The translations under genes were made by a program, and so were the position numbers. 62,208 nucleotides of DNA from a virus (Duplodnaviria > Caudoviricetes), in the IMG/VR virus record IMGVR_UViG_3300048778_000101, positions 1-62,208 of that record. The stretch is one strand, 5' to 3'. Below, piece after piece: positions 31,190 through 52,852 of the stretch; the stretch's first letter is position 1, and every line of letters begins with the position of its first letter. The notes under the pieces are model-generated. The model saw only the letters and a list, made by a program, of their open reading frames with translations, was not told where the DNA came from and did no database searches.

Positions 31190-31990
31190 GGATTTGAGAG
31201 GGCCGTAACTAGTCGCGCTTAACCCGACGCCACGGGGCTTCTTATTTGCTGAAACTAGGAATGCTAAACCTACCGCAATTAGGAATGCTTAATTCACCAG
31301 AATTAAATAGGATAAGTGTCCGCCGCAACTAGGCACGCCAAACTTTTCAAGCTAACTTATAACTAACTTCAATTTCGCTAGGCCCCCTGGAAATCAACGA
31401 TTTATCGTACCACGCAAATAGCATTCTGGCAAGAGAAATCCGCTAGTTAGCTTAAGTATTATTAAAACAAGCCGAGATAATTCCGGGCAGTCGCAAGTCT
31501 TGTGTAATTGCCAATTCCCGGCGGAGCCGGGTATAGCTGGAGCCGGGTATAGCCGGGTATAGCTGGAGAATGGTGAGCCGGGGAATGGTGAGCTTGGGAA
31601 TTGCAAGTTAGAAAGTGATGAGTTAAAAGACGAATTGGCAACTGCAAACTAGACCCGAGCTACCCCGGCGCCGCCAGGCTGATTAGAGTTTGGCTAGCTC
31701 GGATAGTTGGTTTAATTGGTCGAAGCTGAGCCGATGCGAATCAGTTTAATTTATTATAACAATACCCGGCGGAGCCGGGGGTAATCGAAGGATGGCAGTT
31801 TCTAGCCTGTCAAATCGCCAAACTAGTCGAAGCTAATTAGAAACTGGCAGCCCCATTTAACCCGCCCAAACAATACCCGTCGTAGCCGGGAATAGCCGAG
31901 CAATCTGCGATAACTTCTAGCTATAGTACATCTATAATAGGAAGCCCGCGGGCCCGCGGCAAAGCACGACTAGTTATCTCAAACCCCCAC
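31190..31990. other. structured non-coding element A (iteron-like boxes, GNA hairpins, palindrome, flanking inverted repeats)
   Basis: no credible ORF; motif-by-motif homology to 52010-52852. Confidence 0.75.
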
Positions 31991-32023
31991 CAGCAATACT
32001 CATCCCGCAAGTTCCCAAATACA

Positions 32024-32067
32024 CAAAATAAAACAGACCAGCCCCAACTCAATGAGACTAGTCTGTT
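32024..32067 (-). terminator. Rho-independent terminator of the head/adaptor operon
   Basis: minus strand AACAGACTAGTCTCA-TTGAGT-TGGGGCTGGTCTGTT followed by TTATTTTG; G:U pairs work only on the minus strand. Confidence 0.7.
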
Positions 32068-32093
32068 ACCAATTCCCCTAATTAACCCTAGAC

Positions 32094-32969
32094 CTAATAA
32101 GCGGACCCGTCCGAAAACCCGCAGGTATCCCAGCCATAACCCAAAGTGCCCATACCCGCAGCGAACCCGCCAGCCCCCCAGAGCCTAGTCCCGCTATCCC
32201 TAATCCGCATCCAATCCGGCGTATGGTCCGTAGAATACCAACCCTCATTCCCATCCGTAATCCGAGCTTGCTGCAACTTACTCTTAGCAACGGCAATCTG
32301 TTGCCCCCGCAACTCCAGCCCAAACTTTTTATCCTTACTCAATGTAAGCGCAACCTCACTAGCCAAATAAGCCACAAAGGCCGCCCTAAACAATGCATCC
32401 CAAATACTCGGAAACATAACCAGCGACGTGTAAACCAACTGCGCCTGCGCTACATTAGTCAAGATAACAGTCTGCCCCGTCGGACTAACCCCAGGCTGCT
32501 CCCAATACTGCCCTTGCATCGGAGGGATGTTATTAAAATCCGTAGCTACCGTAAACCTAGCCGGAACCATCCGTATCGAACTTTGCGTGGGCGAACCAAC
32601 CTGCGCCACCGGATTAGGCGGAGCCATAATATTCCCCGGAGCCCCACTCGCCGTGGAGTTAAATGCATTAACCGGAACAAACCTAGCCTTAACGCAATCC
32701 GCCGGATACTGATACTCATACTGCCACGGAACCGGAACTACAGTCCCCACATTAGGCGTCTGCCCACTCCCGTCAGCCAGCAGAAAGAGGGGCGCTGTCT
32801 TTCTGGCAAAATCCCAATGTGCAGCACGCAGCAACTGCCGAACGCACTGCCCATAGGCCCGTAAGCATACCTGCGCCTCCCGCGTCCCCTCTTCCAAATC
32901 GCCAATTACGACCTCGCTTCCAATCGCATCCAATGCTTGATTAACTACATCTGCGGGTAAATTAGCCAC
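32094..32969 (-). CDS. tail adaptor / tail tubular protein A paralogue 4
   Basis: DVVNQALDAIG...LLRAAHWDFA...WQYEYQYPADC...WDALFRAAFVAYLA. Confidence 0.85.
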   Translation of the reverse strand: MANLPADVVNQALDAIGSEVVIGDLEEGTREAQVCLRAYGQCVRQLLRAAHWDFARKTAPLFLLADGSGQTPNVGTVVPVPWQYEYQYPADCVKARFVPVNAFNSTASGAPGNIMAPPNPVAQVGSPTQSSIRMVPARFTVATDFNNIPPMQGQYWEQPGVSPTGQTVILTNVAQAQLVYTSLVMFPSIWDALFRAAFVAYLASEVALTLSKDKKFGLELRGQQIAVAKSKLQQARITDGNEGWYSTDHTPDWMRIRDSGTRLWGAGGFAAGMGTLGYGWDTCGFSDGSAY

Positions 32970-32971
32970 AA

Positions 32972-33598
32972 TTAGCCCCTTTCCGAGGTGGCTTCAACCG
33001 TACTGCGCAAGGCTAGATCGGCATCCAGTTTCTGCTCGGCCAGCCTCTCCTGCGTCAGTATAGCTATCCTAGGAGATAGTCTTTCCGCCAGCTTAGCCAC
33101 AAGCACTTCCACGAACAACGGCTCCCAGGTGGACATGTCTGTAACTTGCCCGGTGTAGGTCAGAATTGCCCCAGTCACATTGCAGCAAATTGTCTTCTGC
33201 GCGGGCGAATACGACGTATCATTAATCACCGCAAACGAATTAGGCTGCGGATCGAAATTAGGTATCCAAAGCGGAGCGGCTTTAATCGATCGCACTTTAA
33301 GACAATCGCCGGGATAACTATATTCAAACATCCACGGGATCGGGGGATACGCGGGGCTCCAGACCGTAGGCGGAATATACCCATTAGCCGGAGCTACCTT
33401 CAGCACACTTAAGGACAAGTTTCTTTCTGCAAACCCATAGTCATTCGCACGAAGGGCCTCATCCCTAGTCTGAGAATACACCTCCAGGGCAGCTTCAGCA
33501 GCCGGGCTTCCCTCGAACAAATTACCGATACGCCGATCAAACCCCAGCCTCACCAGAGCTTGATTTACAATATCCTCTGGCGAAGTTGGGGATGACAT
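32972..33598 (-). CDS. tail adaptor / tail tubular protein A paralogue 3
   Basis: DIVNQALVRLG...DEALR..YGFA...WMFEYSYPGDC...WEPLFVEVLVAKLA. Confidence 0.85.
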   Translation of the reverse strand: MSSPTSPEDIVNQALVRLGFDRRIGNLFEGSPAAEAALEVYSQTRDEALRANDYGFAERNLSLSVLKVAPANGYIPPTVWSPAYPPIPWMFEYSYPGDCLKVRSIKAAPLWIPNFDPQPNSFAVINDTSYSPAQKTICCNVTGAILTYTGQVTDMSTWEPLFVEVLVAKLAERLSPRIAILTQERLAEQKLDADLALRSTVEATSERG

Positions 33599-33601
33599 AG
33601 C

Positions 33602-34228
33602 TTAAGTTTCCGTAACAGAAGCGACCTGGAACGCATTATCAGCATCCGTATCACTCTGTTTCAGCAGAGCTTCAATGTGCTGCATATTAGCCAGCGCAAC
33701 GGTGAAAGCTTTGGCCAATTTATCAACCAGCGCATTTACGAACAACGTATCCCAAGTGGTCATATCCGTAATTTGGCCAGTGTAGGTCAGAACCAAATTC
33801 GGAGCATTTGCCAGGATAACTCGCTGCGGAGGCGTGTACGCGCTATCATTGCCCACGGCAAAATGCTGCGGAAGCGGGTCCAAATTAGGCAGAACAGCCG
33901 GAGTACTCTGAACATACAGCACTCGGATGCAGTCTGAGGGATAAGCATACTCATATTCCCAAGGGAGAATAGGATATGTATTCGCCCAAGGAGTTGAGCC
34001 ATAGCCACCTGTGGGGGCAGATTTAAGCTGCGTCAAAGTTACAGTTCGCTGCGCAAACCCCCAGTCTTTCATACGCAGGGCTTCATCACGGCTCTGGGAA
34101 TACAAATCCAACGCCAACTTACTGGCCGGACTGCCTTCAAACAAGTTACCAATTCGGCGCGGGTAGCCGAGCTTCCCCAGCGCCATATTAACAATGTCTT
34201 CTGGAGACGTAACGCTACTAGCCATCAA
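33602..34228 (-). CDS. tail adaptor / tail tubular protein A paralogue 2
   Basis: DIVNMALGKLG...DEALR..WGFA...WEYEYAYPSDC...WDTLFVNALVDKLA. Confidence 0.85.
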   Translation of the reverse strand: MMASSVTSPEDIVNMALGKLGYPRRIGNLFEGSPASKLALDLYSQSRDEALRMKDWGFAQRTVTLTQLKSAPTGGYGSTPWANTYPILPWEYEYAYPSDCIRVLYVQSTPAVLPNLDPLPQHFAVGNDSAYTPPQRVILANAPNLVLTYTGQITDMTTWDTLFVNALVDKLAKAFTVALANMQHIEALLKQSDTDADNAFQVASVTET

Positions 34229-34788
34229 TCTTGCCTTTCCTGGCCAACTTGTTCAAACGCCGCCGACTGGTCTAGCGTATCTCTGGAGGTATCCGGTTTA
34301 CCTGCAATTGCCATAGCCATGCTGGAAGCCAACATCCGCACAACAGTTTCGCGGAAAATAGAGTCCCACAAGTTCTCCGATGGGACATTTGTATACATAA
34401 CTTGTGCATTCGGCAAGTTAGTTTGGATTACTTTTGTTGGAATTCCGCCCACCAGGGAATTAGCGACCTCCCATCGAATGGGCAACGGGTTAAAAGGATC
34501 TGCGAGTGTCGGAGGATTTAACTGCCGGACTTGGATACCATTCGGATACAGGTACTCAACAGTCCACGGGAACGGGGCGGTATTCCCTGACAGAACCAGC
34601 GCGGCAGTGGTTCGAGAAAAATCCCAGCCGAACCGACGGCCTACAGTTTCAACCGTCGGAAGATACAAAGAAGCAGCCGCTACACCCGCAGGAGAACTGT
34701 CAAATGTAGGATAAGTCCCAGTAACTGGGGTTTGATTATCCCCGATTAGCTGGATAGCTTGGTTAACGATGTCAGTTGATGTAACCAT
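34225..34788 (-). CDS. tail adaptor / tail tubular protein A paralogue 1
   Basis: DIVNQAIQLIG...WDFS...WTVEYLYP...WDSIFRETVVRMLA. Confidence 0.85.
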   Translation of the reverse strand: MVTSTDIVNQAIQLIGDNQTPVTGTYPTFDSSPAGVAAASLYLPTVETVGRRFGWDFSRTTAALVLSGNTAPFPWTVEYLYPNGIQVRQLNPPTLADPFNPLPIRWEVANSLVGGIPTKVIQTNLPNAQVMYTNVPSENLWDSIFRETVVRMLASSMAMAIAGKPDTSRDTLDQSAAFEQVGQERQD

Positions 34789-34791
34789 GGC

Positions 34792-36999
34792 TTAATACTC
34801 AATCCAAGCCAACCCAGGAGATCCGTTGCCTCCGGGATAACTGCCCGCTGAACCCCCGCCGCCGCCTGCGCAGTATCCGTAAGCATTAGACCCCGCTGCA
34901 CCAGTTTCTATCCCACCCTGCCCGAACTGACTACTCCCACCGCAGGTACCAAACCCTTGCGAAGACATATAAGGTCCGGTGGTGCAAGTATAGGAGTTAG
35001 CTCCAGTGGGAATAGTATCCAGCGGACCGCCCAAAGCTACGCCACCAATTCCAGGTTCGGCAGTGGATCCCACAGTTGCATAAGTTCCGCCCTCGCCACC
35101 AGTAGCCCTAAGAGACCCAACCGTAGTTGTAGCACCGGCAGAGCCATCTACCCCAGCCCCGCTGCCAGAACCGCTGGACCCGATAGTGATAGAGACCGAA
35201 GTTCCTGGAGTGGTGGTTATAACTCCCCTATTCCACCCGCCGGCACCCCCGCCAGCCGCCCCATAGGAAGCTGTACCACCACCGCCGCCGCCGCCACCCC
35301 CACACAGGGTAACTGTGTAACTATACACGCCCGCTGGAACTGTCCAAGTCCCGGACGATGTAACTGCAACCAATCCATGCGGGATAGTTACTGAAAGAGC
35401 CCCGCCACTAAGGGACAAGTTAGCACCAATTGACGCAGAGGCTGCCAGATTTGGTGTCCCGCTCCCTACCAAGACTTCCCCGGAAGCCGGGGGCACAGTA
35501 GTTTGCGTAATTGTATTTGTAAGAGAAGACCCGGAAAGACTTAGACCAGCTCCAACATTAACAGTGGACGCAGTTCCTGCAACTCCAGTTCCCCCCAGAA
35601 GCTGCCCGGCCCCCGGCGGTACGGTAACTTGTGTAATTGTACTGGAGAGTGCCCCACCGCTGAGGTTGAGACCAGCTCCAATAGCTACCGCAGAAGCAGT
35701 CCCGCTAATTCCGCTGCCACCCAACAACTCCCCAGATGCTGCCGGGACTTCGACTTGAGTAATAGTACTAGCAAGCGTACCTGCGGCGAAACTAAGCCCA
35801 GTCCCGACAGTAACACTAGCTGCCTGATTGGCGGTTCCACTCCCACTGAGCAGTTTGGAACCGTCTGACGGAATAGTTGCTTGTGTAATAGTGCTGAACA
35901 AGGTGCCTGAGGTCAGCGAAAGCCCGGCCCCCAGAGAGACATCAGCAGCTTGATTAGGTGTTCCGCTGCCCCCAAGCAGTTTGGTAGCATCCGCGGGGAT
36001 AGTTGCTTGTGTAATAGTGCTGAACAAAGTTCCAGCGATCAGACTGAGACCCGTCCCAACTACCACCGCCGAGGCCGTCCCACTGGTACCACTACCCCCG
36101 AGCAAATCCCCAGAGGCCGGGGGAATACTGTTTGTATTGGTCAGGTATCCGCCGGAGAGTTGCAGCCCAGTTCCAATAGCTACTGGTGAGGCTGTTCCAA
36201 TAAAACCACTTCCACCAAGTAGCTCTCCTGTCGCCGGTGGGATAGTTGCGCAAGGGGCTCCGAAGTCCACGGCATTACCGAATACATCAAATTCCAAGCA
36301 GTTGAAGCTGGCATAACTGCCTGTAGACAATTGAATTCGGGGGCCATTTCCACGAACCGCCGCACTCCCGCCTAGACCGACTACCTGCCCTCCGAATGTG
36401 ATAACAGAGTTCGTTAGGTAAGCATTGGAAATAGACAGGGGGGCGATGTTATTCAGAACAGTTCCGCAGTCTTTTAGAACTGTTCCGGTGGAATTATTCC
36501 AGCAGGCTACATCACCAACTGCGGAGGCATTTGGCCCGCTTAGATAGCCGTTTGTAGGGAGCGTAACTATCTGCCCATTGGCCATGATAGTAAACGGCAA
36601 CGGAGCCGCCCCACCCCCGGAGCCATATTCCAAAAGACCGCTACCCTGTGCATTGGGGCTTAGACAGACGTAATGGTAGCCATTAGCACTAGTTGTTGGG
36701 CCATCGTAGTCGCAGAAGTTGGCCCCATAAGGGCCAGTTCCGCCATTGGGAAAGGGGCCGGTACCAACGCCACGGACGGTGAGACCTAGTTCAGAAAGAC
36801 CTACCCCAATTGCCCCGCCAGCGGCAGTTCCGCTGTCTTGTACAACAGGCTGCCATGCGGTAGATCCGCCAGGGCCAGCGTACATGGGAACATGCCCAAC
36901 GGACCAGGGGCCGCCTTGTATAACTGTGCTCTGCGCATAACTGACTGCTGGTGACAGGGCTAGGCAAACCGCTAGGGAGTAAGGTAGACCGCGCATCAT
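34792..36999 (-). CDS. fibre protein: signal peptide, seven ~42-aa shaft repeats, Gly-rich tip
   Basis: MRGLPYSLAVCLALSPAVSYA/Q; repeats P.xG.LLGGSG...A..V..G.GL.L..G.L..TITQ; SSGTWTVPAGV...CGGGGGGG. Confidence 0.8.
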   Translation of the reverse strand: MMRGLPYSLAVCLALSPAVSYAQSTVIQGGPWSVGHVPMYAGPGGSTAWQPVVQDSGTAAGGAIGVGLSELGLTVRGVGTGPFPNGGTGPYGANFCDYDGPTTSANGYHYVCLSPNAQGSGLLEYGSGGGAAPLPFTIMANGQIVTLPTNGYLSGPNASAVGDVACWNNSTGTVLKDCGTVLNNIAPLSISNAYLTNSVITFGGQVVGLGGSAAVRGNGPRIQLSTGSYASFNCLEFDVFGNAVDFGAPCATIPPATGELLGGSGFIGTASPVAIGTGLQLSGGYLTNTNSIPPASGDLLGGSGTSGTASAVVVGTGLSLIAGTLFSTITQATIPADATKLLGGSGTPNQAADVSLGAGLSLTSGTLFSTITQATIPSDGSKLLSGSGTANQAASVTVGTGLSFAAGTLASTITQVEVPAASGELLGGSGISGTASAVAIGAGLNLSGGALSSTITQVTVPPGAGQLLGGTGVAGTASTVNVGAGLSLSGSSLTNTITQTTVPPASGEVLVGSGTPNLAASASIGANLSLSGGALSVTIPHGLVAVTSSGTWTVPAGVYSYTVTLCGGGGGGGGGTASYGAAGGGAGGWNRGVITTTPGTSVSITIGSSGSGSGAGVDGSAGATTTVGSLRATGGEGGTYATVGSTAEPGIGGVALGGPLDTIPTGANSYTCTTGPYMSSQGFGTCGGSSQFGQGGIETGAAGSNAYGYCAGGGGGSAGSYPGGNGSPGLAWIEY

Positions 37000-37014
37000 A
37001 GTCTTTCATCAAAT

Positions 37015-37071
37015 GGGGCTAGATGTAAGTTTGCACAGTATTAGCAATTACCGCAAGCTTAATCTAGCCCC
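37015..37071. terminator. long intergenic hairpin
   Basis: GGGGCTAGAT.TAAGTTTGC...GCAAGCTTAATCTAGCCCC. Confidence 0.5.
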
Positions 37072-37143
37072 TTTGAAATAGTTGAGAGTTACGGTGAGAT
37101 TCCGGTGGCGAGGCCAGAAGGGTGAAGTTTTTGTTAACTTGCG

Positions 37144-37647
37144 TTAACTCGGAAGTGTCCAAACGACTGCTTGGACGGCGGCTTCTGTGGTTGCGGCGCA
37201 GATCTCAGCCGCAAGAACAGAATTTTGAACGACAAGCGCCTCTTTAGCCACGCTGCCATCCTGTAGAACCTTCAAGATTTGCGGGGCCGTGTGTGCGACA
37301 TAGCCCCAATTTCCAGAAGCATCGGCGCACCAGAACTTTCCGCCAATACCGCCAGCCACCAAACCCACCAGATTGGCTTGGTCGGTTTGGCCTGACGGAT
37401 AGGTATAGACCGCCCCAAGCGCGGAAGACTGAAAGCCCCCAATAATGGCCGACGCACATCCAGCAGATACGGCGTAAATTTGAGTGTCTTGCGCCTGCGC
37501 CAGGGCGGCGGCGGCATAACCCGGAAAGGCCGTGGCCAGTTGGGCCGGGGTGGGGAAATCGTCGAACAACACCTCGCCGGCAGCCGGCGTGTGATCGTTG
37601 GAACAGCAGGAAATGTAGCTCCCATTACCACTCGCTACATACATCAC
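37144..37647 (-). CDS. tail-fibre-associated protein (DUF4376-like)
   Basis: IIGGFQSSALG..YTYPS..TDQANL...FWCAD...HTAPQI..V...AATTEAAVQAVVW. Confidence 0.75.
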   Translation of the reverse strand: MMYVASGNGSYISCCSNDHTPAAGEVLFDDFPTPAQLATAFPGYAAAALAQAQDTQIYAVSAGCASAIIGGFQSSALGAVYTYPSGQTDQANLVGLVAGGIGGKFWCADASGNWGYVAHTAPQILKVLQDGSVAKEALVVQNSVLAAEICAATTEAAVQAVVWTLPS

Positions 37648-38567: not shown

Positions 38568-38570
38568 GTC

Positions 38571-41021: not shown

Positions 41022-41026
41022 AATCT

Positions 41027-41260: not shown

Positions 41261-41288
41261 AGGAAAACTCCGCGACAAGAGGTCAAGA

Positions 41289-41963: not shown

Positions 41964-41971
41964 TGAAGCAA

Positions 41972-43347: not shown

Positions 43348-43352
43348 ACGCC

Positions 43353-44607: not shown

Positions 44608-44632
44608 TATCTTGAACTCCTAGTTAGCGCGC

Positions 44633-45682
44633 TTAGACGACGCGGGCTTCGGTGGTGGTAAGCTGGTCAACGATCTTGATGGGAATACCGCGATAGGTAT
44701 CGCAGGGCATACCGGCGTAGTCTTCCAGATGCAGCAGAACATTTCGCTGGCGCATAGCCTGCAAGTCCATGTAGTGCCGAATGGTCCGGTTGCAGTAGAA
44801 CGTCGGGCGAATACCGGGGGACGGATCTTCCACAGCGTCAGTTTTGGTAATGCCGCTGGTCTTCTTACCAAGATGCGGGGGGAGGAACATCATCTGCGCC
44901 AGTTTGGCAAAGATATCAACAGCATTCGGGCCAGCGAGACCAGCCGCAGTTACGTCGATATTAGCCGCGCGGGCGGCATAACGCCAATCCTGCGGGCACA
45001 GACCAGCATGCTGTTCAAACAAACTCGTGTAAGCTTCAAAGCGATTACCCAGAGCATCATAACCCGGAGTTACATCGCCCTTATCCTCCATAACCAGACC
45101 AGCTTTGGAGCCACGCGGGTAGAGCCCGAAGATAGTGCGCTCACCCCAGCACACCAGCCAGATACTGGAGTTACTGGAACCAGTTCCGCCGCAGTCCAAA
45201 ACATTGGTGGCATTCTGGGCGCCGCTGGAAGTGCTGACAGTATTGTAGAAGCCAGCCAATCCCATAAACTGAGCGGGATTAGCCACAGAATTTCCGTAAA
45301 AGAAAGTCTGGGCCATAGTCTGCGACATACCTTCAAGGAACGCCACATCTTCCCGTTCGCGGAAAGTTTCAACATCCCCAGAGTCCATCGCCAGCGTCTT
45401 ATCGACCTGCGAGTAATCTCGCAGCATGCCAATGCCAACACGAGACTTGGACGTAGTGCTCTTGGAGTAGGGCACGCCCATATTGTACTGAGCCCAACTG
45501 CCGGCCGGGATACTGGTTCGGAATACGAAACTATGCCCGCCAGTCTCATTCGCCTCAATCCAAGGCAAATCATCAAACAAATCATTGCTCTGACTGAGCA
45601 TTTCGGCGATATACGCCTGTTTGCCATGCGGATCTTGGCGCGTAGTCAAATCGACAAGAGAGAGCCAACTGCCGGTAGCCAT
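44633..45682 (-). CDS. major capsid protein (BPP-1 Bbp17-like HK97 fold)
   Basis: IAEMLSQSN..F.D.PW.EAN; AFLEGMSQ..A...FYG; SSIWLVCWG; DWRY..R.ANID; GIPI..VDQL..TEARVV. Confidence 0.93.
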   Translation of the reverse strand: MATGSWLSLVDLTTRQDPHGKQAYIAEMLSQSNDLFDDLPWIEANETGGHSFVFRTSIPAGSWAQYNMGVPYSKSTTSKSRVGIGMLRDYSQVDKTLAMDSGDVETFREREDVAFLEGMSQTMAQTFFYGNSVANPAQFMGLAGFYNTVSTSSGAQNATNVLDCGGTGSSNSSIWLVCWGERTIFGLYPRGSKAGLVMEDKGDVTPGYDALGNRFEAYTSLFEQHAGLCPQDWRYAARAANIDVTAAGLAGPNAVDIFAKLAQMMFLPPHLGKKTSGITKTDAVEDPSPGIRPTFYCNRTIRHYMDLQAMRQRNVLLHLEDYAGMPCDTYRGIPIKIVDQLTTTEARVV

Positions 45683-45709
45683 ATACTAAGTCCTTTCTAT
45701 ACTGGGCAG

Positions 45710-46471: not shown

Positions 46472-46872
46472 TTCATACCTCTCATCTTGATGTTAACCTT
46501 TGAAAATCTCGGGTCAAGCTCATCATGCATCGTAGCTACCTCCGAGCGAACTATCTTCAAAAGATGCAGGTATAATCTAAGCCCAAAAGCCTGCTGGCCG
46601 GCGTGGAACCAAGTTGCCTCAACCTGCGGAAACCCATTAGGACCAGTTGCGAACCGCTCTTCAAAAGTTCCCGCATCTTGCAAGAGCCCCCAGACAATTC
46701 CCCGGCCGGTGGGGTGCCCCATAATAGCTCTCCAGAACTCAAGTGTCTCCAGTTCCCGCAGGCGAGCCTTCTCCCGCGCCTTATTGACACCTGAACGACT
46801 TCCAGCGTCTGGGGTTTCCACCTCCGGGTCGTCTGAAACTTCGTCAAATAGTTCCAACTGTTCGTCTTCCAT
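46468..46872 (-). CDS. Bbp19-like head-module protein
   Basis: MGHPTGRGIVWGLL..AG.F...F..GQQ..GL. Confidence 0.75.
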   Translation of the reverse strand: MEDEQLELFDEVSDDPEVETPDAGSRSGVNKAREKARLRELETLEFWRAIMGHPTGRGIVWGLLQDAGTFEERFATGPNGFPQVEATWFHAGQQAFGLRLYLHLLKIVRSEVATMHDELDPRFSKVNIKMRGMK

Positions 46873-46880
46873 GGGAACTC

Positions 46881-47294
46881 CTAGTGCAGCATACCAGTGG
46901 ACTGTACGTGCTGTTTTGAGGTAATACTGGCCGGGGGGAGGATCGCCCCTTTAATTCCGGTTTTATCGTGCCGAAGATGCTCGGCCAAGTTAGCTCCTAG
47001 GCGCAAATTATCTCCAAGCATCCCAAACAACTTGCGGGGCCGCCTGCCACGGAGCCATCCACCAGCTTTTTCGTGTGCCATCTCCATGGCAATTCCCAGA
47101 GGGAACCAGCGAGAGTCTTCTCGCCAATGCCCAACTTGGCGACAGCATCCTTCGATAAGTTTAAGGGACTTTCGCAATTCCCCATATGCCTGCCCCATGA
47201 CAGGCAGCTTTACCAGTCTATCACAGCAACTAGCTGCCTTCTTAAAATTCTCCACCATACAGGAGAAGATTTCACCCTCAGTTAGATCAGACAT
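46881..47294 (-). CDS. hypothetical protein
   Basis: ORF between the portal and the Bbp19-like gene. Confidence 0.6.
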   Translation of the reverse strand: MSDLTEGEIFSCMVENFKKAASCCDRLVKLPVMGQAYGELRKSLKLIEGCCRQVGHWREDSRWFPLGIAMEMAHEKAGGWLRGRRPRKLFGMLGDNLRLGANLAEHLRHDKTGIKGAILPPASITSKQHVQSTGMLH

Positions 47295-47296
47295 AC

Positions 47297-49111
47297 TTAT
47301 TGTCCTCCCGGAATTCCGAGTAATGCATTCAGTGCAGAATTTCCACCCACATTAGTTTCGCTAAGTGTCTTAGCAGCCTGTACCCCGGCCATAGTTGGAG
47401 CAATTGCCTGCTGCTTAGCCTGAGCACTCTGCCGGGCGGCGTCCTGTTCCTGCACCTCCTTCGCAGTGTACAAAGCATCGGCAGGGAAGCTACTCATATC
47501 TGCGTACCTGCGCATTGCGGCGTCCAGATTGAAAATACGCAGGGGATCGGGAACTCCGGCAGCTTTGGCAGCGGCGCTCATACTACCAGCCATGCCTAGG
47601 GTATCTTTCATAGCTACGGTTTCAGTAGCCCTTTGCGCCAGCTTTAGAATTGAAATGTACTCAATCTTCAGCGGAACATTGTGCAAAGACTCCGGCAATG
47701 GGAGTAGCATCCCCCGGCGCCGCATAATTGACAATACTCTGGTAATGGCCGGTCCGGCGAACTCTGTCTCAAACAGTTCAATAAACGGCCCAAGTATCTG
47801 AAGACGCTCCAGATCTCGCTTAGTTAGCTCCAACTCATTCCTGGGCTGCACACCTTCCATCTGGCTAATTGCCATAAAGATGTCTGTGAAAAAACATTTC
47901 TTAATCCGATCCTGGATCTCCTTAATATCCTGTACAATCGGTTGCAAGGCTTGAGGGTTAACTTCAAACAAGGGGAAGAAGCCCTTTCTACCGCCAGCCG
48001 TGCTCATGTAGGTAATCTGGCCGGGGAGGATCGAACTAGGCTCATTCTTCAATTCTGGATCAGCCCCCATCGGAGGTCTAACTACCTTTTCAAGTAATTC
48101 CGCCTTCCTGCGAGTTTCCTGCTGAAGCTGTTTTATATCTCCAAGAGCATCCATACCGGGACTACGCCCGTAGGGATCATTGCTAACTGTAGACCAGCGG
48201 GCTGCCATGAACGGGCGTTCGTTAAAACCCCGCCTGGACAGTTCTCGGTCAGTTTTAACCCCCTTTAGCCAATATACCTCTCTCCAGGGGAAATGGCCGG
48301 GAACCACAGTTACTGAAGCAGTCTCACCAGTACCCCGTTTGGAACTGATTGGGGCATTAGGTTCAATAGCATGCGCAACCACATGCTCCAATGACAAACT
48401 TGCTCCCCCAGTTTCCCAGGCAGTTCTAACTTGCTGCGGGCAATTATCCAGGGTAAACATCTCTACTATCTGCGCTGTGTTCAGTGTGAACTCCCGGTAA
48501 AAGGCATCGACACTGAGCCGGCCTCCGACATCGAGATAGTATTCTCCCGCGCACGAACCATAGCAGCGAATTACATCCTCATCATCTTCATAGATAATTA
48601 TGGGAGCCGTACCGAATGTAGTAACATCTTGGAAAGCTTGGGCCATAGTTGTATAGAAATTAGATTGGCCCAGTACAGTATAAAGCTTCCTTTCTGTGTC
48701 CTCGATCCAATACTTCCCATCCCGATCAAGCTGGTCATAACTATTACCGAGCTTGAACCAGGGTCGCGAGGGGCTAGTTAGCCCGGTCCAAAGTCCGCTG
48801 GAGCATGTCTGCATAGCCAGGGTAGCTGTACTATCCACGATACTCTGGTTAATTGGGCTGCCTCGGGTCATCCTGTTGGCAACCACTAGCCAGTGATACC
48901 GGCGCGGGAGAATGTATTCTGCCAAACTTGCCCAATAGGCCCACCAACTATAGCGCCAACTGCGAAGCATACCCAAGCGAGATTCACAAGCCCCATAGAT
49001 AGCAGGCCAATCTTTACCCGCTGGGGCGGGATTACCCAAAGTTAGGGGCTGTTGTGCCAGTAGCGTGGGGCTCATATGTTCGTAAGGGGCGGAACTGAAA
49101 TCTTCAGCCAT
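47297..49111 (-). CDS. portal protein (head-tail connector)
   Basis: DSTA..A...L.SGL..GLTSPSRPWF; SNFY; RW....YGRSPGMDALGD.KQLQ; IEYISIL..AQ. Confidence 0.93.
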   Translation of the reverse strand: MAEDFSSAPYEHMSPTLLAQQPLTLGNPAPAGKDWPAIYGACESRLGMLRSWRYSWWAYWASLAEYILPRRYHWLVVANRMTRGSPINQSIVDSTATLAMQTCSSGLWTGLTSPSRPWFKLGNSYDQLDRDGKYWIEDTERKLYTVLGQSNFYTTMAQAFQDVTTFGTAPIIIYEDDEDVIRCYGSCAGEYYLDVGGRLSVDAFYREFTLNTAQIVEMFTLDNCPQQVRTAWETGGASLSLEHVVAHAIEPNAPISSKRGTGETASVTVVPGHFPWREVYWLKGVKTDRELSRRGFNERPFMAARWSTVSNDPYGRSPGMDALGDIKQLQQETRRKAELLEKVVRPPMGADPELKNEPSSILPGQITYMSTAGGRKGFFPLFEVNPQALQPIVQDIKEIQDRIKKCFFTDIFMAISQMEGVQPRNELELTKRDLERLQILGPFIELFETEFAGPAITRVLSIMRRRGMLLPLPESLHNVPLKIEYISILKLAQRATETVAMKDTLGMAGSMSAAAKAAGVPDPLRIFNLDAAMRRYADMSSFPADALYTAKEVQEQDAARQSAQAKQQAIAPTMAGVQAAKTLSETNVGGNSALNALLGIPGGQ

Positions 49112-49114
49112 AAC

Positions 49115-49339
49115 CTATTGCCCCAGGAGAGTTTTAGCGGCAGTTGCAGTAGTCCCGGTGACGCCTTGAGCCGAAGTTCCGCCCAAAGTGTCACTAAAAC
49201 CCATACCACCAGCCGCAGCAGCAGCGGCTCTTTGTGCAGCAGCAGAACCCGCAGCCTGTACTTGCGCACTAGCTTGCGTAGCCGGGATAGGCGGAGGCGA
49301 AACTGCGGCAGGTGCTGCGGGAGTAGATCCACCACCCAT
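49115..49339 (-). CDS. small Ala-rich virion protein
   Basis: MGGGS.P..PPP...KTLLGQ pattern between TerL and portal. Confidence 0.65.
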   Translation of the reverse strand: MGGGSTPAAPAAVSPPPIPATQASAQVQAAGSAAAQRAAAAAAGGMGFSDTLGGTSAQGVTGTTATAAKTLLGQ

Positions 49340-49351
49340 AATTAGAACTCC

Positions 49352-50788
49352 TTACCAGATTGTGGAATATTTATCATCATGCCCGTCGAATGGGTCGTAG
49401 TCAAACTTATGCCACCCACTTCTAGCGGCTGACTTCCTGCGAGCGGTTACGGGGAAAGCGAAAGTTAGGGCAAACGCATCTGCGTGGTCCGGGGAGTAGC
49501 CAAGTTTGCCTTTAATAACGTCCTTAGGCTCCAGAATAAGTTTACTGCCCTTGAAAGTGTAGGTAGTAGCCGAAAGCGCATCGAAGAGCTTCTTATTGTA
49601 AGGAAGAGCGCCCCCACGTTTGACCCATTCGATAGCTTGGAAGTACATCTCCGCTCGCTTATTGGCGTAACGGGTATCATCGCCAGCCTTAGTAGCAAAA
49701 CCAACTCCGATTGGGGACTTTCCAAGGTTACGGAGTTGGTCTAGCCAGCCGGCGCCAAACCCGCCGGTATCATCTACAAAGCAGGCGTCTGCACCCCAGT
49801 TATCCCATTCGCGAATGGTAACCTCAGCCCCTTGGGTACTATCCAGTCCGCGATAATCCAAAAATCCGAAGCATTGAACACCCTGGCGCTTGCAGATTAC
49901 GCTCTCATCATCCCCGTGGCGAGCTACGTCAATCCCAAGAACCTTAGCAGCTACTCCTATGTCAAATTCTCTGTAGTATCTTTTTGAGGCAGCTTCCAGT
50001 TCCGGTAGCCCTATTAAGGCATTCAGGGATTGCGGCGGGAATTGCCCAAACACATTGACTAGCACCCAGGGATTATCACGGCCATACTTTTCAATCTGCT
50101 CATTGGCCCACTGCACGCTAATTCGAGGGGATCTCTTCGGGCTTTCGGGGTCTCCGGTAATTTCCACAACATACCAGAGGTGTTTTTCATCGGTGGTAGC
50201 TCTGTATAGCGGGCCTTCTCGCATGGTGGGATTACCGGCTTGGATAATATGCCCTTCTTTACAGGAAGATAGGGCAGCTTCGGCAGTAGCCATAACTGCG
50301 TCCGGGATACCGCCGCTCTCATCCAGAAGGAATAGGATAAAATCGGCATGCAGCCCAGCCAGGGTGTCCGATTGCTGGCTTTTGTCGGCAGTTTTACTCC
50401 AAGTTCGCGCCGTCATAAACCAAGTTTCGGAGTATTCCTTGTGGCTAATTCTGGTCTTAGTCCAAGTAAACATCTCTTTTAGTAGTGGAGAATTTTCCTG
50501 CCACTTCGCCATTTCGGCCCATAGATTATCAGATAGATTATCCTTGCTGATTGAGGTAGCCGCAACTTTGGGCATGGGACGGGTTAGTAGAAAGTTCCAA
50601 GCCAACCAGGCCAACAAGGCTGTCTTTCCGGGGCCTTTGCAAGCCTTCATAGCTATGCGTTGGTTTTTTGGGAAAGCTTGGAGAACTTCCGCCTGCCAGT
50701 CGTCAGGTTCTACTCCGAAGAGTTCCCGGACCATAACTACTGGATCATCGCGCCAGGCCCGGAGTTTGGCAATTGCTGGTAGACTCAT
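49352..50788 (-). CDS. terL: terminase large subunit
   Basis: KACKGPGKT, FLLDESG, GNP, LGIDVAR.GDD, SPD.ADA.ALTF. Confidence 0.95.
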   Translation of the reverse strand: MSLPAIAKLRAWRDDPVVMVRELFGVEPDDWQAEVLQAFPKNQRIAMKACKGPGKTALLAWLAWNFLLTRPMPKVAATSISKDNLSDNLWAEMAKWQENSPLLKEMFTWTKTRISHKEYSETWFMTARTWSKTADKSQQSDTLAGLHADFILFLLDESGGIPDAVMATAEAALSSCKEGHIIQAGNPTMREGPLYRATTDEKHLWYVVEITGDPESPKRSPRISVQWANEQIEKYGRDNPWVLVNVFGQFPPQSLNALIGLPELEAASKRYYREFDIGVAAKVLGIDVARHGDDESVICKRQGVQCFGFLDYRGLDSTQGAEVTIREWDNWGADACFVDDTGGFGAGWLDQLRNLGKSPIGVGFATKAGDDTRYANKRAEMYFQAIEWVKRGGALPYNKKLFDALSATTYTFKGSKLILEPKDVIKGKLGYSPDHADAFALTFAFPVTARRKSAARSGWHKFDYDPFDGHDDKYSTIW

Positions 50789-51357
50789 TTCTTATCCCAG
50801 TCTTTTGAGATAGGTTGGAAGGGGTCTAGTTCCAAGGAGTCTGCTATACTATCCAGGTCTGTGGAATTATCCACGGGAGTTATATCAACTAACTCTGGGT
50901 CTTCGTAGCTTTTGGTTACTAGATCGGCCCAGGTTAGTTTGACGTCGTGTTCGATTTGCTGCTTGTCCCGCCAGCTAACTTCACGACGATTTTTCAGCCA
51001 GAAAGTAGCTGCTGCTGTGTCTGGGGCGACGTCTTCTCTAGTTTCGGTGACAGTTATGGAACCTTCGCTGTCGGTAACTGTTTTGGTAGTGGTTTTAACT
51101 CCGCCGATTGCCCGATTATAGAGTGCCAGAGCTACTTTACCGTCGGATTCTACGCGGCCTTGGGATAGGTAGGTAGTTATCTCCGGCGTGCGCTTCTTCC
51201 AGGAATTGAAAATAGCCTCGCTAACTCCGAAGTAAGCTCCGATTTCGGCATCGGCAAGCCCCAACAAGGCCAGTCTGTACACAGTAGCCAGTGCTTCTTG
51301 CCGGGAAGTTGCGGGAATAGCTGCGGGGACAAGTGAGACTGCTGTTTTCGGGGGCAT
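50785..51357 (-). CDS. terS: terminase small subunit
   Basis: LLGL.D.EI..YFGVS....NSWKK; V..ALY.RA.G; PDT.A..FWLKNR...WRDK. Confidence 0.88.
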   Translation of the reverse strand: MPPKTAVSLVPAAIPATSRQEALATVYRLALLGLADAEIGAYFGVSEAIFNSWKKRTPEITTYLSQGRVESDGKVALALYNRAIGGVKTTTKTVTDSEGSITVTETREDVAPDTAAATFWLKNRREVSWRDKQQIEHDVKLTWADLVTKSYEDPELVDITPVDNSTDLDSIADSLELDPFQPISKDWDKK

Positions 51358-51579
51358 TTAGGAAGCCTCCGAGCGGGTTTTGTAGATTAGGTTCTGGAAA
51401 CCATTGCTGTTTAGCATGTAGCTTACCCAAGATTGCGGCAAATGCAGCAATTCAGCATAAGTTTCATGGGAAGCTTCGGGAAGTTTGAGAACTAGGTTAA
51501 GCAGATCATCTTTAGCGGGCATGGGAAGGTTCCTTAGCTGATTTAGCTGAGTATGCCATGCCAGAGGGTTTAATGTCAA
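51358..51579 (-). CDS. small HTH-like protein
   Basis: ASHETYAELLHLPQSWVSYML.S..FQ. Confidence 0.5.
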   Translation of the reverse strand: MTLNPLAWHTQLNQLRNLPMPAKDDLLNLVLKLPEASHETYAELLHLPQSWVSYMLNSNGFQNLIYKTRSEAS

Positions 51580-51583
51580 TTGA

Positions 51584-51907
51584 TTAGGGGAATTCGCGAA
51601 GGGTTTGGTCGATTATTGCATCGACCATTTGGTTATCTATTTTCAGTATGGCCAGATAACCGGACTGGGTAGTTTCATCCCATACTTGTTTGACGCGAAG
51701 TCTCCAGGCGGTTTTGATTAGCGGGTACCAGATGTGATCGGGACGGGTTCTGATAGTTTCCAGGAAGTATTTCCAATAGCGATGTGTATTTTCCAAATGC
51801 GGGCGGGAGAGGCAGAAAGCAAATTTAGCGCGGGAGGTAGTTTGCAGTTTTTCTAGGATTATGTGGAATTCAATTGGGTAGTCATCGGGATCGTGGTGGC
51901 GGATCAT
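51584..51907 (-). CDS. hypothetical protein
   Basis: GGAG RBS; first gene downstream of element B. Confidence 0.55.
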   Translation of the reverse strand: MIRHHDPDDYPIEFHIILEKLQTTSRAKFAFCLSRPHLENTHRYWKYFLETIRTRPDHIWYPLIKTAWRLRVKQVWDETTQSGYLAILKIDNQMVDAIIDQTLREFP

Positions 51908-52009
51908 AGTTGCGCTCCGTTTGGAATTGTCAGATTTAGTTAGCGGCGCTTGGTGAGCTTGCGAACCTTAGCAGAGCTTACGGCGCGTTCATATGAATTT
52001 TTGCATTTA

Positions 52010-52852
52010 ATTAACTGGCGCATTTGCCATGTGCTTATATTGAAACTAGTCATGCTAAACCCGAATTGAAACTAAGCATGCTAAACTCCGGGATAATTAG
52101 GCACGCCAAACTTTGAGATAATTAGGAGCCTCTAACTAGCACGCGCTGTCCCCCGCAAACCAACGATTTATCGTAGCATGAAATTCCGCAGTTAGCAAGG
52201 CTAATCTTATCCAAGCTAGAATTAAAACCCCGTCGAAGACGGGTATAGCTCCATAATTGCCATAATTGCCATAATTGCCATAATTCCGAAACCGACAGCT
52301 GTAATAATATAAATAACTCCACCCAATTTCCGCGGAGCCCGGCGGAGCCGGGGATAGTTCGGGATAGTTCTAGATAGTTCCAGCTAGTTCTATAGTTTGC
52401 AAATACCTGGAGTAGCTCAACAGTTACCGGAATTGCCGCAATCACCTAGTATGGTTAAAGAATTAGCCGCAATTCCCGCCGAACAAGTCCCGCGCGGTTT
52501 CGGAAACTGCTAGTTATAATGCACAATCCCCGCGCAATTCCGGCAGTTCCCGCGCAAGCTTTGGCCCGCCGGAGGTGGGTATAACTCTGCCAGCTAGTCT
52601 AATTCATGCCAGTTGGTCTAATACAGCTTCTAATTAATATGAAACAGTTCCTGAGATAACTAGCGAGGCTAATTTGAATTACCCAAAATTGGGAAATCGC
52701 CAAGTATGGGGGAACGCAACCGACCCCCGCCACCCTACCCCCAAACTCCAAATTAGCCCCCCTACCCCAGTCTAGCCAATCTCGCTAGTTAAGCTAAGCT
52801 AATCAAGCCGCGAGCGCCGCGGGCCCGCGGTTAAGCGTCCCTAGTTACGGGC
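52010..52852. other. structured non-coding element B, homologue of element A
   Basis: same motif order as 31190-31990, plus (CCATAATTG)x4 and TAGTTC tracts phased at 10 bp. Confidence 0.75.

Follow-up and report, generated by a model that had tools for sequence, protein, structure and literature searches.

Mini-hairpins with a C-GNA-G loop are used by the promoters of N4; N4 has two such loops in the accessible part of PMC13037366, GAA and the GGA of the P2 mini-hairpin, whose core is GCGGAGC, and the P2 oligonucleotide in the excerpted methods of PMC13492108 carries the same mini-hairpin. Mini-hairpins of the N4 type extrude at physiological superhelicity, according to the accessible portion of PMC4496689. 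GTAG-tagged REPs, as described in the available sections of PMC3733652, have stems mostly of 6–9 bp, loops of 2–3 nt and an unpaired terminal tag; their stems include complementary variants and G.T pairs, and whole clusters recur along with segments of the surrounding DNA.

We analysed a 62,208-nt stretch of DNA (the window), the whole of record IMGVR_UViG_3300048778_000101, which is a complete podophage genome from an uncultured peat phage (GC 52%); its 127-bp terminal repeat resembles an assembly overlap and gives no ends. The genome contains a family of seven hairpins, six on the + strand and one on the − strand, each copy spanning ~22 nt and comprising a 6-bp GC stem, a 3-nt G-first loop and an ATAG/GTAG-type tag on the 3′ side. 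The original prediction had listed five of these, at 31517, 31765, 31876, 52229 and 52338, and all five were recovered, including the single mismatch at 31876 (T.C) and the compensatory change from G:C to T:A, with pairing kept, at 52229; the copies at 52565 (+) and 31664 (−) are additional. All seven sit in two paralogous non-coding cassettes, A and B, which share a layout running from the end of an upstream minus-strand gene through hairpin units, three or four in number and 90–150 nt apart, to a predicted promoter, a repeat-rich leader and a late virion operon. The features, in coordinate order, are as follows.

31207–31350: AACTAGGAATGCTAAACC-type repeats of 24–25 nt, within the leader that follows promoter A
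31404–31432, − strand: predicted promoter A, TTGCCA-N17-TACGAT with TG before the −10 box, facing the tail and ejection-protein operon
31469–31476, + strand: relic in cassette A, matching the place of copy 5 in cassette B and adjoining the shared GTTTTAAT block
31517–31538, + strand: copy 1, CCCGGC-GGA-GCCGGG with tag TATAGCT (pattern match; covariance model E 8e-10)
31542–31563, + strand: two extra units of 3′ arm plus tag (GCCGGGTATAGC at 31542 and 31552) without 5′ arm, in a period-16/10 tandem array
31657–31678, − strand: copy 2, inverted, CCTGGC-GGC-GCCGGG (31664–31678) then GTAGCT, with a T.G wobble on the minus strand (E 2e-6)
31765–31786, + strand: copy 3, CCCGGC-GGA-GCCGGG then GGTAATC; its minus-strand side continues directly as TGTTATAAT
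31876–31897, + strand: copy 4, CCCGTC-GTA-GCCGGG (the mismatched copy) with AATAGCC
31946–31959: 14-bp perfect palindrome CCGCGGGCCCGCGG in cassette A, common to cassette B
32032–32067, − strand: canonical intrinsic terminator ending the upstream tail-fibre operon, where cassette A begins when read along the minus strand (dG −22.1, tail score −4.45)
52039–52119: AACTAGGAATGCTAAACC-type repeats of 24–26 nt downstream of promoter B
52170–52198, − strand: predicted promoter B, TTGCTA-N17-TACGAT with TG before the −10 box, facing ORF107, TerS, TerL and the portal gene
52229–52250, + strand: copy 5, CCCGTC-GAA-GACGGG (pair 5 is T:A) with TATAGCT; the minus strand continues as GTTTTAATT
52251–52285: array of CCATAATTG, 3.9 units, on the 3′ side of copy 5
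52338–52359, + strand: copy 6, CCCGGC-GGA-GCCGGG with GATAGTT
52353–52392: array of GATAGTTCNN, 3.8 units, on the 3′ side of copy 6
52475–52483, + strand: relic of 5′ arm and loop alone (CCCGCCGAA), found by sequence inspection
52565–52586, + strand: copy 7, CCCGCC-GGA-GGTGGG (52565–52579; pair 5 is C:G, pair 4 a G.T wobble) with TATAACT (E 1e-7)
52817–52830: palindrome CCGCGGGCCCGCGG in cassette B

Allowing up to two mismatches, the 15-mer has five matches in the genome (among them the minus-strand 31664–31678; the 52229 copy, with three mismatches, was confirmed separately); 100 dinucleotide-preserving shuffles averaged 0.29 and none of them reached five. The pattern CCCGKCGNAGMCGGG gave five forward and no reverse matches, its backward-read control none in either direction, and an unfiltered covariance-model scan of both strands returned exactly the seven copies at E <= 2e-6; the runners-up are copies 4 and 3 read on their opposite strands (E 0.023 and 0.028), and the best unrelated match, at 49007, has E 0.045. 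The motif G[AC]CGGG.ATAG occurs seven times on the + strand and never on the − strand, with six of the seven inside the two cassettes and two of these six lacking a 5′ arm. No family copies were found in the other intergenic gaps of the phage, and the small ORFs of cassette B had no family match and no homologue among the relatives. Pairwise identity between copies averages 0.83 for the core, 0.48 for the tag and 0.24–0.31 for the flanks (~25%, the random level), and three copies share an identical 15-mer although their flanks are unrelated; borders this sharp point to sequence-specific constraint or copying, not to just any hairpin. The (T/A)ATAG said to follow most hairpins does follow three of the five first listed (NATAG follows four), with GGTAA at 31765.

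Something appears to maintain the hairpin fold-back, as DNA or RNA, a view that the pairing supports in part. All but one of the 42 stem cells pair on the tag strand, stem pair 5 is GC in four copies, CG in one and TA in one, and both wobble pairs are compatible only with the strand bearing the G-first loop and the tag; the covariation statistics are modest, as 34 to 64 of 500 shuffles equal the observed values. Selection on DNA structure, as originally proposed, is supported as far as the fold-back and the 83% core identity go, but the sequence fits DNA or RNA alike. Exclusive + orientation and a loop varying only at its middle base hold for the five hairpins first listed and not for the whole family, given the minus-strand GGC-loop copy at 31664–31678. 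Conservation of loop bases 1 and 3 among those five sequences (three identical) involves four substitutions, which by our estimate would miss two given positions about half the time.

The cassette promoters share the predicted sigma-70-type consensus TTGCYA-N17-TGnTACGAT, with hexamers conserved between A and B but not the spacer; promoter B, scoring 8/12 against a cut-off of 9, was not listed by the promoter scan. TTGC[CT]A-N17-TACGAT has just two sites in the genome, and all seven copies lie upstream of these, after the upstream gene end, holding their position relative to other conserved blocks of both cassettes. Early cassettes of the phage carry TTGCTA-N16-TATAAT, which suggests that the host polymerase reads sigma-70-type signals. 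Cassette B, the largest non-coding region, sits where the early (+) and late (−) gene blocks diverge, with TerS and TerL directly downstream. Cassette A is absent from the closest relatives and is an insertion: in G001 and G004 its flanking genes abut, 3 and 9 nt apart. No recurrent hairpin family was found in G001, G002 or G004, so the element is dispensable for the basic biology of the group.

We tentatively read the hairpins as a DNA-level cis element upstream of late promoters. A single short cis-acting element, made up of a 15-bp GC palindrome, a G-first triloop and a one-sided ATAG/GTAG-type tag, would belong to a duplicated, lineage-specific control cassette and would act as DNA within the spacer upstream of the promoter. 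A phage or host factor may recognize it sequence-specifically, more likely in extruded-hairpin form than as a duplex palindrome; the 6-bp stem and C-GNA-G tip match the N4 design that extrudes at physiological superhelicity. Negative supercoils would gather behind the active promoter, cassette B moreover lying between divergent transcription units, and a bound or extruded array could tune or insulate the late promoter. Several observations count against this DNA-level reading: the hairpin nearest the −35 box is ~40 nt away in B (copy 5, 52229) and ~92 nt away in A, the coordinates give no helical phasing among hairpins, the U-rich minus-strand tails of three of the seven copies fall in the genome's best 5%, no binding protein for the hairpins was identified, the relatives lack the element and the covariation statistics are weak. 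Duplex recognition in particular has against it the covariation and the G.T wobbles, which are expected of a folded single strand, RNA included.

Those tails suggest weak minus-strand terminators, attenuators or 3′-end stabilizers within a PeSL-like terminator-to-promoter cassette that uncouples late operons, a reading that we consider quite unlikely. Two hairpins, 31765 and 52229, are flagged by a consensus scan as resembling minus-strand terminators, and the tails of 31765, 31876 and 52229 score −3.51, −3.54 and −3.29 (cut-off for the best 5%, −3.11), within the range of five canonical terminators (−2.5 to −4.45); the hairpin at 52229 stands close upstream of a −35 box, 31765 runs directly into its tail, and cassette A is an indel between relatives, as are PeSLs in the accessible part of PMC4122927. 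However, the three good tails represent two events, since 31765 and 31876 form a tandem duplication, and the tails of four of the seven copies are at median level. Canonical terminators have dG values of −17 to −22, compared with −8.2 to −10.3 for five six-pair minus-strand copies (one via a U.G wobble) and about −5 for the mismatched 31876 and 52565, the latter an A.C mismatch on the minus strand and a wobble on the plus; this gap between clear terminators and perfect family members (−8 to −10) counts against a purely RNA-level stop signal. For termination, moreover, structure suffices, and neither an identical 15-mer nor a conserved upstream-side tag is needed; in cassette A the copies come after a strong terminator in any case. 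The same regions might be iteron-type arrays of hairpins and phased short repeats, marking a replication origin or a terminase recognition (pac/cos) region: an inverted half-site has direct repeats of 3′ arm plus tag next to it, the 3.9- and 3.8-unit arrays adjoining hairpins have a period of 9–10, and cassette B has the size and the position, at the early/late divergence and before the terminase genes, while the lack of a recognized initiator or primase makes transcription-primed initiation conceivable. We consider this very unlikely, as the array sequence changes from hairpin to hairpin, two regions 20 kb apart would be implied (one recently inserted inside an operon), the terminal repeat defines no ends and no origin-binding protein was found in the phage. 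Templated correction of quasi-palindromes can yield 'compensatory' changes without selection, and the hairpins could be functionless, slippage-prone palindromes homogenized by gene conversion and hairpin-templated correction in fast-evolving non-coding DNA. Partial tandem duplications beginning in the loop (for example, two units each of GGAGCCGGGTATAGCT and GCGGAGCC), several further duplicated intergenic cassettes elsewhere in the genome and the absence of the family from relatives agree with such an origin, which nevertheless seems very unlikely: identical 15-mers with a conserved tag in random flanks are hard to obtain via ~22-nt conversion tracts, and the copies keep their place relative to other conserved cassette blocks.

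Copying of a different kind, which we regard as unlikely, would make the hairpins REP-like tagged palindromes, multiplied as units by a host Y1 (RAYT-type) enzyme acting on single-stranded DNA hairpins, or by recombination, with any effect on the phage being secondary. The hairpin design fits the GTAG-tagged REPs of PMC3733652, as far as the available sections describe them; three identical 15-mers lie in unrelated flanks, partial copies, relics and one inverted copy accompany them, and the relatives lack the family. Among 185,579 species genomes, the 20-nt core-plus-tag pattern occurs at 14 places, of which a single Armatimonadales MAG, G006, accounts for four (six with NNTAG); in it the pattern adjoins a REPIN-like doublet family, whose GCCCCGRAGGGGC occurs 125 times (control, 4) with inverted pairs 39–67 nt apart (mostly 43–52), and Y1_Tnp has eight matches. 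Yet the phage copies number just seven and are confined to two non-coding regions, the phage has no detected Y1 transposase, and the tag is mostly ATAG rather than GTAG and lies 3′ of the palindrome on the strand reading NTAG. The E. coli GTAG tag is on the 5′ side of the palindrome. The tag in G006 may belong to the next palindrome, GC is 64–72% in the seven G006 loci checked against 52% in the phage, G006 showed no further DNA similarity to cassette B and nothing matching the portal, and a single repeat family among ~11 independent database matches could be chance. The original prediction, correct that N4 promoters use the C-GNA-G loop, pointed to priming, nicking or polymerase loading, and the + strand hairpins would then be N4-like single-strand start signals (leftward template-strand promoters or replication priming/loading sites) read by an unrecognized phage or host enzyme. 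The phage core GCGGAGC with its GGA loop equals the P2 mini-hairpin given in PMC13037366, whose accessible part also has the GAA loop; the 6-bp stem is inside the N4 range of 5–7 bp, for the adjoining leftward operons the template strand carries six of the seven copies, and the copies are arranged in tandem, like P1–P3 of N4. In four of the seven, C stands five bases 5′ of the stem, at the same offset as the N4 +1, and in three of those the four intervening bases are A/T only. A genome-wide scan for perfect stems of at least 5 bp with a C-GNA-G tip found seven hairpins, all on the + strand, but three of them (57411, 58355 and 59461) are unrelated in sequence to the family; 160 related-phage loci (1,377,137 nt) hold 47 on the + and 46 on the − strand, or about two per strand per 62 kb. 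As originally stated, no N4-type RNA polymerase or HUH nuclease was found in the phage, nor any primase or Y1 enzyme; the missing primase leaves a priming route open. No RNA polymerase emerged when the large virion proteins were compared with Pfam, PHROGs and PDB sequences, a six-frame search with PF00940 gave no match (its control likewise matched in no genome), and the proteins of 893 and 1966 aa, which look like lysozyme-bearing and polyvalent ejection proteins, have no DxDxD motif. The key −8G of N4 is G in four copies, T in two and C in one, the 5′ flank, where N4 starts, has only random identity (0.25), the conserved tag would end up far upstream, late virion genes rather than early ones would be served, and one copy is inverted with a GGC loop. 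The family lies upstream of two predicted sigma-70-type late promoters, and the proposed priming, nicking and loading roles are not supported; a direct role as a start site of RNA or DNA synthesis is less likely than tuning or insulation of the late promoter, and N4-like start signals are highly doubtful.

The likeness to N4 is real for the core and fails at −8G, the conserved start region, the gene class and the polymerase. The repeats are real and conserved and give no support for starting or priming synthesis as in N4; the hairpin family is a lineage-specific variant of already known kinds of element.

All five C-GNA-G hairpins of the original prediction lie at the positions given there, and they belong to a family of seven elements of ~22 nt, each combining a 6-bp GC stem, a 3-nt loop that starts with G and a 3′ tag of the ATAG or GTAG type. 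Every copy lies in one of two non-coding regions, cassettes A (31085-32093) and B (51908 to ~52931), and the two added copies emerged when these were compared with each other at high sensitivity.

Hairpin copies, named by start coordinate, and relics
31517, plus strand, cassette A
31664-31678, minus strand, cassette A, inverted copy: CCTGGC-GGC-GCCGGG, then GTAGCT
31765, plus strand, cassette A
31876, plus strand, cassette A
52229, plus strand, cassette B
52338, plus strand, cassette B
52565-52579, plus strand, cassette B: CCCGCC-GGA-GGTGGG, then TATAAC
31469-31476, relic: decayed copy adjoining the shared block GTTTTAAT, at the place where cassette B has copy 52229
52475, relic: 5′ arm and loop

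A covariance model built from the seven copies and run over the whole window (both strands, filters off) returned only those seven at E ≤2e-6; the next matches (E 0.023 and 0.028) fall on copies 4 and 3 of the seven, read on the opposite strand, and the best unrelated match, at 49007, has E 0.045. Allowing ≤2 mismatches, the 15-mer occurs five times, against a mean of 0.29 in 100 shuffles, none of which reached five. A both-strand scan for perfect C-GNA-G triloops with stems of at least 5 bp gave seven on the plus strand and none on the minus strand, three of the seven (57411, 58355 and 59461) being unrelated hairpins outside the family. Related phage DNA (1.377 Mb) carries 47 such hairpins on the plus strand and 46 on the minus strand, or ~2 per strand per 62 kb without bias. 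Among the copies, the 15-mer has a mean pairwise identity of 0.83 and the following seven bases one of 0.48, the tag there reading ATAG in four copies and GTAG, GTAA and ATAA in one each; every other flank segment that was measured gave 0.24-0.31, the random level. Contigs from two RNA and two DNA sequencing runs showed no difference inside any hairpin across 30700-32500; those of one RNA run cover the coding flanks (to 31141 and from 32228) and leave the spacer bare, and the second RNA run gave none in this interval, missing cover being no evidence. The element is real, and it is either constrained or actively copied.

Stem length is 6 bp and loop length 3 nt in all seven copies; one copy carries a mismatch and two a wobble pair. 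On the tag strand (the strand reading NTAG), 41 of 42 stem cells are paired. At stem pair 5, four copies have G:C, one has C:G, one has T:A and one is mismatched, and the wobbles G.T (52565) and T.G (31664) become A.C mismatches if read on the other strand. Controls for covariation were only moderately convincing: the paired fraction was attained by 64 of 500 shuffles and the covariation score by 34 of 500, and pairing dropped to 33-52% with slid partners. The element folds, or once folded, as a hairpin on its tag strand. C-GNA-G appears on that strand in six of seven copies and GCGGAGC itself in three, with loops GGA (four copies), GAA, GTA and GGC (one each). Selection on DNA structure had been argued from a loop varying only at its middle base; conservation of the first and third bases is judged from four substitutions in five sequences, which is not significant by itself, and the minus-strand copy reads GGC. 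Nearest-neighbour DNA folding gives equal energies for both strands and therefore does not discriminate between them; the extra stability of C-GNA-G is thus taken from the literature and was not computed here. DNA mini-hairpins of the form d(GCGNAGC), studied by Hirao and colleagues, are reportedly extraordinarily stable.

The window, 62,208 bp long, is an entire IMG/VR virus record. The phage genome is divided between plus-strand early and replication genes and minus-strand virion genes, the latter also including fibre-like genes.

Genes of the window
50785-51357, minus strand, TerS
49352-50788, minus strand, TerL
47297-49111, minus strand, portal gene
44633-45682, minus strand, GP7-type capsid gene
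27725-31084, minus strand, tail protein, 1119 aa (phrog_376, E 2e-158)
26265-27782, minus strand, internal/ejected virion protein, 505 aa, with hydrolase and GNAT-like parts
25669-26259, minus strand, internal/ejected virion protein, 196 aa
22977-25658, minus strand, internal/ejected virion protein, 893 aa
17074-22974, minus strand, internal/ejected virion protein, 1966 aa
11105-13543, plus strand, family-A DNA polymerase with an N-terminal UDG-superfamily (UDG-like) domain
13646-14014, plus strand, T7 gp5.9-like RecBCD inhibitor domain
Plus strand, Dda-like helicase, PD-(D/E)XK exonuclease, Sak4-like ATPase and CobS-like AAA protein

The nearest named relatives of the capsid are phiV10/epsilon15-like phages at ~42% identity. 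A SET-domain protein is encoded at 15012-15425, no tRNA was found in the window, and an Rfam search of the window at E up to 1 gave no match. A 127-bp repeat stands at both termini of the window; since a circular assembly graph would leave such a repeat, it probably carries no information on the true ends. Across the whole window, GCG[AG]AGC occurs 20 times on the plus strand and six times on the minus strand, in gene blocks of both orientations, and without the four cassette copies the counts are 16 and six; this strand excess may reflect codon usage.

Cassettes A and B are paralogous, sharing blocks in identical order along the minus strand.

Blocks shared by cassettes A and B, in minus-strand order
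1, perfect palindrome CCGCGGGCCCGCGG
2, hairpin units, 90-150 nt apart
3, block GTTTTAAT
4, TTGC(C/T)A-N17-TACGAT, with TG ahead of the -10 box
5, block AAAGTTTGGCGTGCCTA(G/A)TT
6, repeats of 24-26 nt

The fourth block has exactly two sites genome-wide, and its hexamers are kept while the spacer has diverged, the pattern expected of a real sigma-70-type promoter. A consensus promoter scan listed the A site and scored the B site 8/12, one under threshold. Early cassettes carry TTGCTA-N16-TATAAT, from which it is evident that signals of this kind are recognised by the host polymerase. Inspection by eye spoke against a sigma-54 interpretation of the conserved block, which was rejected. The region A hairpins sit between a strong terminator (32032-32067, dG -22) and the predicted promoter, in a stretch that minus-strand transcription should mostly skip. 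In the -10/start block of both late promoters lies a palindrome, ACGAT-TT-ATCGT (31398-31409 and 52164-52175), a possible operator overlapping the late promoter. The leader between the 24-nt repeats and the tail gene start carries GGGGA(A/T)TTTG four times on the plus strand (31094-31196), and GC skew over 30001-32000 is +0.17 despite the minus-strand gene. An inverted repeat at 52881-52927 (16-nt arms, 94% complementary, no U tract) directly follows the stop of an 80-aa ORF; neither this ORF nor the other two small ORFs of region B (101 aa and 107 aa) has a homologue in the relatives.

In the two closest relatives holding both genes, orthologues of the ORF at 32094-32969 and of the tail gene abut (gene ends 36155/36151 in the 67-kb phage G001 and 7199/7189 in phage G004), so a ~1-kb control cassette has entered a conserved virion operon. 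Region A is an insertion over its full 1 kb, a terminator-to-promoter cassette duplicated into that operon. No recurrent hairpin family was found in G001, G004 or a third relative, G002, and the G001 counterpart of cassette B is unrelated sequence; the family is thus lineage-specific, and it is absent from all seven closest loci. Wider searches returned two loci for the tail protein (28% identity), 195 relatives for the portal (best 68%) and 126 metagenome-contig relatives for TerL; one of these, a 1.7-kb fragment, is 100% identical and ends short of the cassette, and the remainder reach ≤74% identity. The hairpin-plus-tag pattern had two matches in IMG/VR, both in GC-rich coding DNA of unrelated contigs. 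The G002 tail-protein match (861-1226 and 1971-4799) is split by ~740 nt inside one open frame, and the G001 TerL frame (locus L011, 7305-9788) has 827 aa against 478 aa in the window phage; both may be inserted elements.

The genome is rich in small paralogous genes and in intergenic cassettes, of which several further ones are duplicated. An early promoter cassette with TTGCTA-N16-TATAAT occurs at 657-818 and 58293-58454 (76% over 164 nt), and the 5′ hairpin after its promoter covaries between copies (GAATTC-AAC-GAATTC and GAAATC-GAA-GATTTC); the non-family C-GNA-G hairpin at 58355 is this 5′ hairpin, its paralogue having the loop AAC. Other early-region repeats pair 60088-60218 with 61526-61657 (132 nt, 97.7%), 56647-56721 with 57209-57269 (41 nt, 95%) and 54812-54874 with 58944-59006 (63 nt, 84%).

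Of the single readings, we tentatively favour one in which the element acts at the DNA level, upstream of the two predicted late promoters. A factor would recognise it either as a palindrome or, once extruded, as a mini-hairpin of the N4 style, and the hairpin array would tune or insulate the late promoter. Copy 52229 lies ~40 nt upstream of the predicted -35 box and copy 31765 abuts TGTTATAAT, the other copies lying 90-500 nt from the conserved predicted promoter. Weak minus-strand terminators are distinctly unlikely as an explanation. Copies 31765, 31876 and 52229 have U-rich minus-strand tails in the genome's best 5%, and the consensus scan lists two of them; the tails of the other four are unremarkable. 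Folded on that strand, the five copies that form all six pairs have a dG of -8.2 to -10.3 (one via a U.G wobble) and the mismatched copies 31876 and 52565 one of ~-5, against -17 to -22 for the phage's five clear terminators, which were picked from a home-made genome-wide list of 262 rows that is otherwise too noisy. Termination would also leave the identical 15-mers and the conserved tag without explanation; attenuation is a possible subsidiary role for some copies. Two further candidates were rejected: a CRISPR-repeat mimic, as no locus in the genome scan had more than one match and hence no array carries this repeat, and a diversity-generating retroelement hairpin, as self-BLAST gave no template/variable pair and the scanned proteins include no reverse transcriptase.

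REP-like repeats are an unlikely explanation, the phage copies being few and confined to two cassettes, and a six-frame search of the phage with PF01797 found no Y1 (RAYT) transposase. The 20-nt core-plus-tag pattern occurs at 14 places in 185,579 species genomes, four of them in G006, an Armatimonadales metagenome-assembled genome that has six with NNTAG. There the hairpin adjoins a doublet family, GCCCCGRAGGGGC (GCCCC-GRA-GGGGC mini-hairpins), found 125 times against four for a control and arranged as inverted pairs 39-67 nt apart, mostly 43-52; G006 also has eight Y1_Tnp matches, one of them 133 nt from a REPIN-like unit. The doublet family is seen for example at loci L200, L203, L209, L211, L216 and L217, and some of its pairs continue into CCCGGC-GGA-GCCGGG with an NNTAG tag and a third palindrome. 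As host or donor, G006 has against it a GC content of 64-72% (seven loci) versus 52% in the phage, no further DNA similarity to cassette B, no portal match, and its standing as the only one with the pattern among 401 sampled genomes of its phylum; nothing beyond the repeat itself speaks for it as host, and we rejected it. The other ten places are single matches in nine genomes, mostly in GC-rich, unrelated context (130-nt windows), and the G006 family, one among ~11 independent matches, may be coincidence. N4-like start or priming signals are very unlikely, and we regard origin or packaging iterons, and by-products without function, as comparably improbable. Searches with Pfam, PHROGs, PDB sequences, PF00940 (six frames of the window) and Atlas look-alikes gave no virion or T7-like RNA polymerase; the PF00940 control gave no match in any genome, which makes that negative weak. 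The tail, 505-aa, 196-aa, 893-aa and 1966-aa proteins lack a DxDxD motif. Pfam, PHROG and PDB-sequence comparisons gave no match for the 893-aa protein, whose Atlas look-alikes are phage proteins, some with lysozyme-type domains; for the 1966-aa protein the match is to a family of internal virion proteins, and polyvalent-protein domains occur in its look-alikes. The prediction had reported neither an N4-type RNA polymerase nor an HUH nuclease. Among the proteins scanned, no primase was recognised. We give still less credence to a further reading, in which N4-type single-strand start signals are read by an enzyme other than an N4-type polymerase. The plus-strand hairpins would be extruded by the negative supercoils that gather behind the late promoters, and either leftward late transcription would start there or DNA synthesis would be primed for the phage family-A polymerase; candidate readers would be host primase, host RNA polymerase or an unrecognised phage protein.

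Were the favoured reading of a bound or extruded site correct, it would offer compact, testable DNA-structure control of late genes in a host-polymerase-dependent podophage, for which the seven copies, differing in swapped pairs, wobbles, loops and in one case orientation, already supply a small mutational series. N4-type start signals would extend hairpin-promoter logic past the schitoviruses, so that the sole well-studied class of hairpin promoters would span more than a single phage family. If REP-like, the family would mean that repeats of this type are able to settle in the regulatory DNA of phages, and it could give a lead to the host. The 1-kb regulatory cassette copied into the middle of a virion operon is a clear case of phage operon rewiring.

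Among known systems, the mini-hairpins of Hirao and colleagues are a structural class that implies no function. The available parts of PMC4496689 describe the early promoters of N4 as hairpins on the template strand, with stems of 5-7 bp, loops of 3 nt and the centre at -11, contacted at -11G, -10G, -9C and -8G within a conserved region from -17 to +1 and extruded by gyrase-driven supercoiling aided by SSB. Those of PMC13037366 give the mini-hairpin GCGGAGC with loops GGA or GAA, consistent with a purine at the centre, -11 (PMC13037366, PMC4496689), and those of PMC13492108 a P2 oligonucleotide with stem GAAGC/GCTTC, loop GGA and four A's then CC 5′ of the stem. Measured against these partial accounts of P1-P3, the likeness to N4 holds for the core (GCGGAGC identical in three copies, with a closing C:G pair), the stem and loop sizes (6 bp and 3 nt in all seven), the tandem layout and the strand, six of seven copies being on the template strand with respect to the neighbouring leftward operons. 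Five of the seven loops are GGA or GAA as in N4, whereas the GTA and GGC loops do not fit. A C stands as fifth base 5′ of the stem, the N4 +1 offset, in four of seven copies, some with an A/T spacer, against ~1.8 expected by chance, two of the four being tandem duplicates. The likeness fails elsewhere: the -8G position, part of the covarying pair, is G in four copies, T in two and C in one; the ten bases 5′ of the stem, conserved in N4, show a pairwise identity of 0.25 on average; the conserved tag is on the side away from an N4-type start region; one copy is inverted; and no polymerase was found. N4 promoters serve the early end of a schitovirus, whereas these hairpins belong to a podophage whose capsid is of the epsilon15/BPP-1 type, and they stand ahead of its late virion operons.

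In the available parts of PMC3733652, REPs are palindromic units of 20-40 bp with stems of 6-13 bp and a short loop; the GTAG-tagged class mostly has stems of 6-9 bp, loops of 2-3 nt and an unpaired terminal tag, with complementary variants, G.T pairs and clusters that include flank pieces. The 15-bp palindrome with its ~7-nt tag falls within that partial definition, and the phage family resembles REPs and REPINs in its GC palindrome, short loop, tag, stem variants, extragenic site and clusters with partial flanks. It differs in copy number, seven in two regions rather than hundreds spread extragenically, and in its tag, mostly ATAG rather than GTAG. The polarity of tag to palindrome also appears opposite to that of E. 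coli REPs.

The cassettes as wholes recall the PeSLs of T4-type phages, which the accessible portions of PMC4122927 and PMC2839356 present as composite terminator/promoter cassettes that are duplicated and mark indels. As far as those portions go, the likeness extends to the composite non-coding make-up, the duplication within the genome and the indel marking, cassette A being missing between the orthologous genes of G001 and G004. PeSLs as described there are small units of a single stem-loop and an early promoter in myovirus hyperplastic regions, whereas the cassettes reported here span 0.8-1 kb, carry several identical mini-hairpins and belong to the late operons of a podophage.
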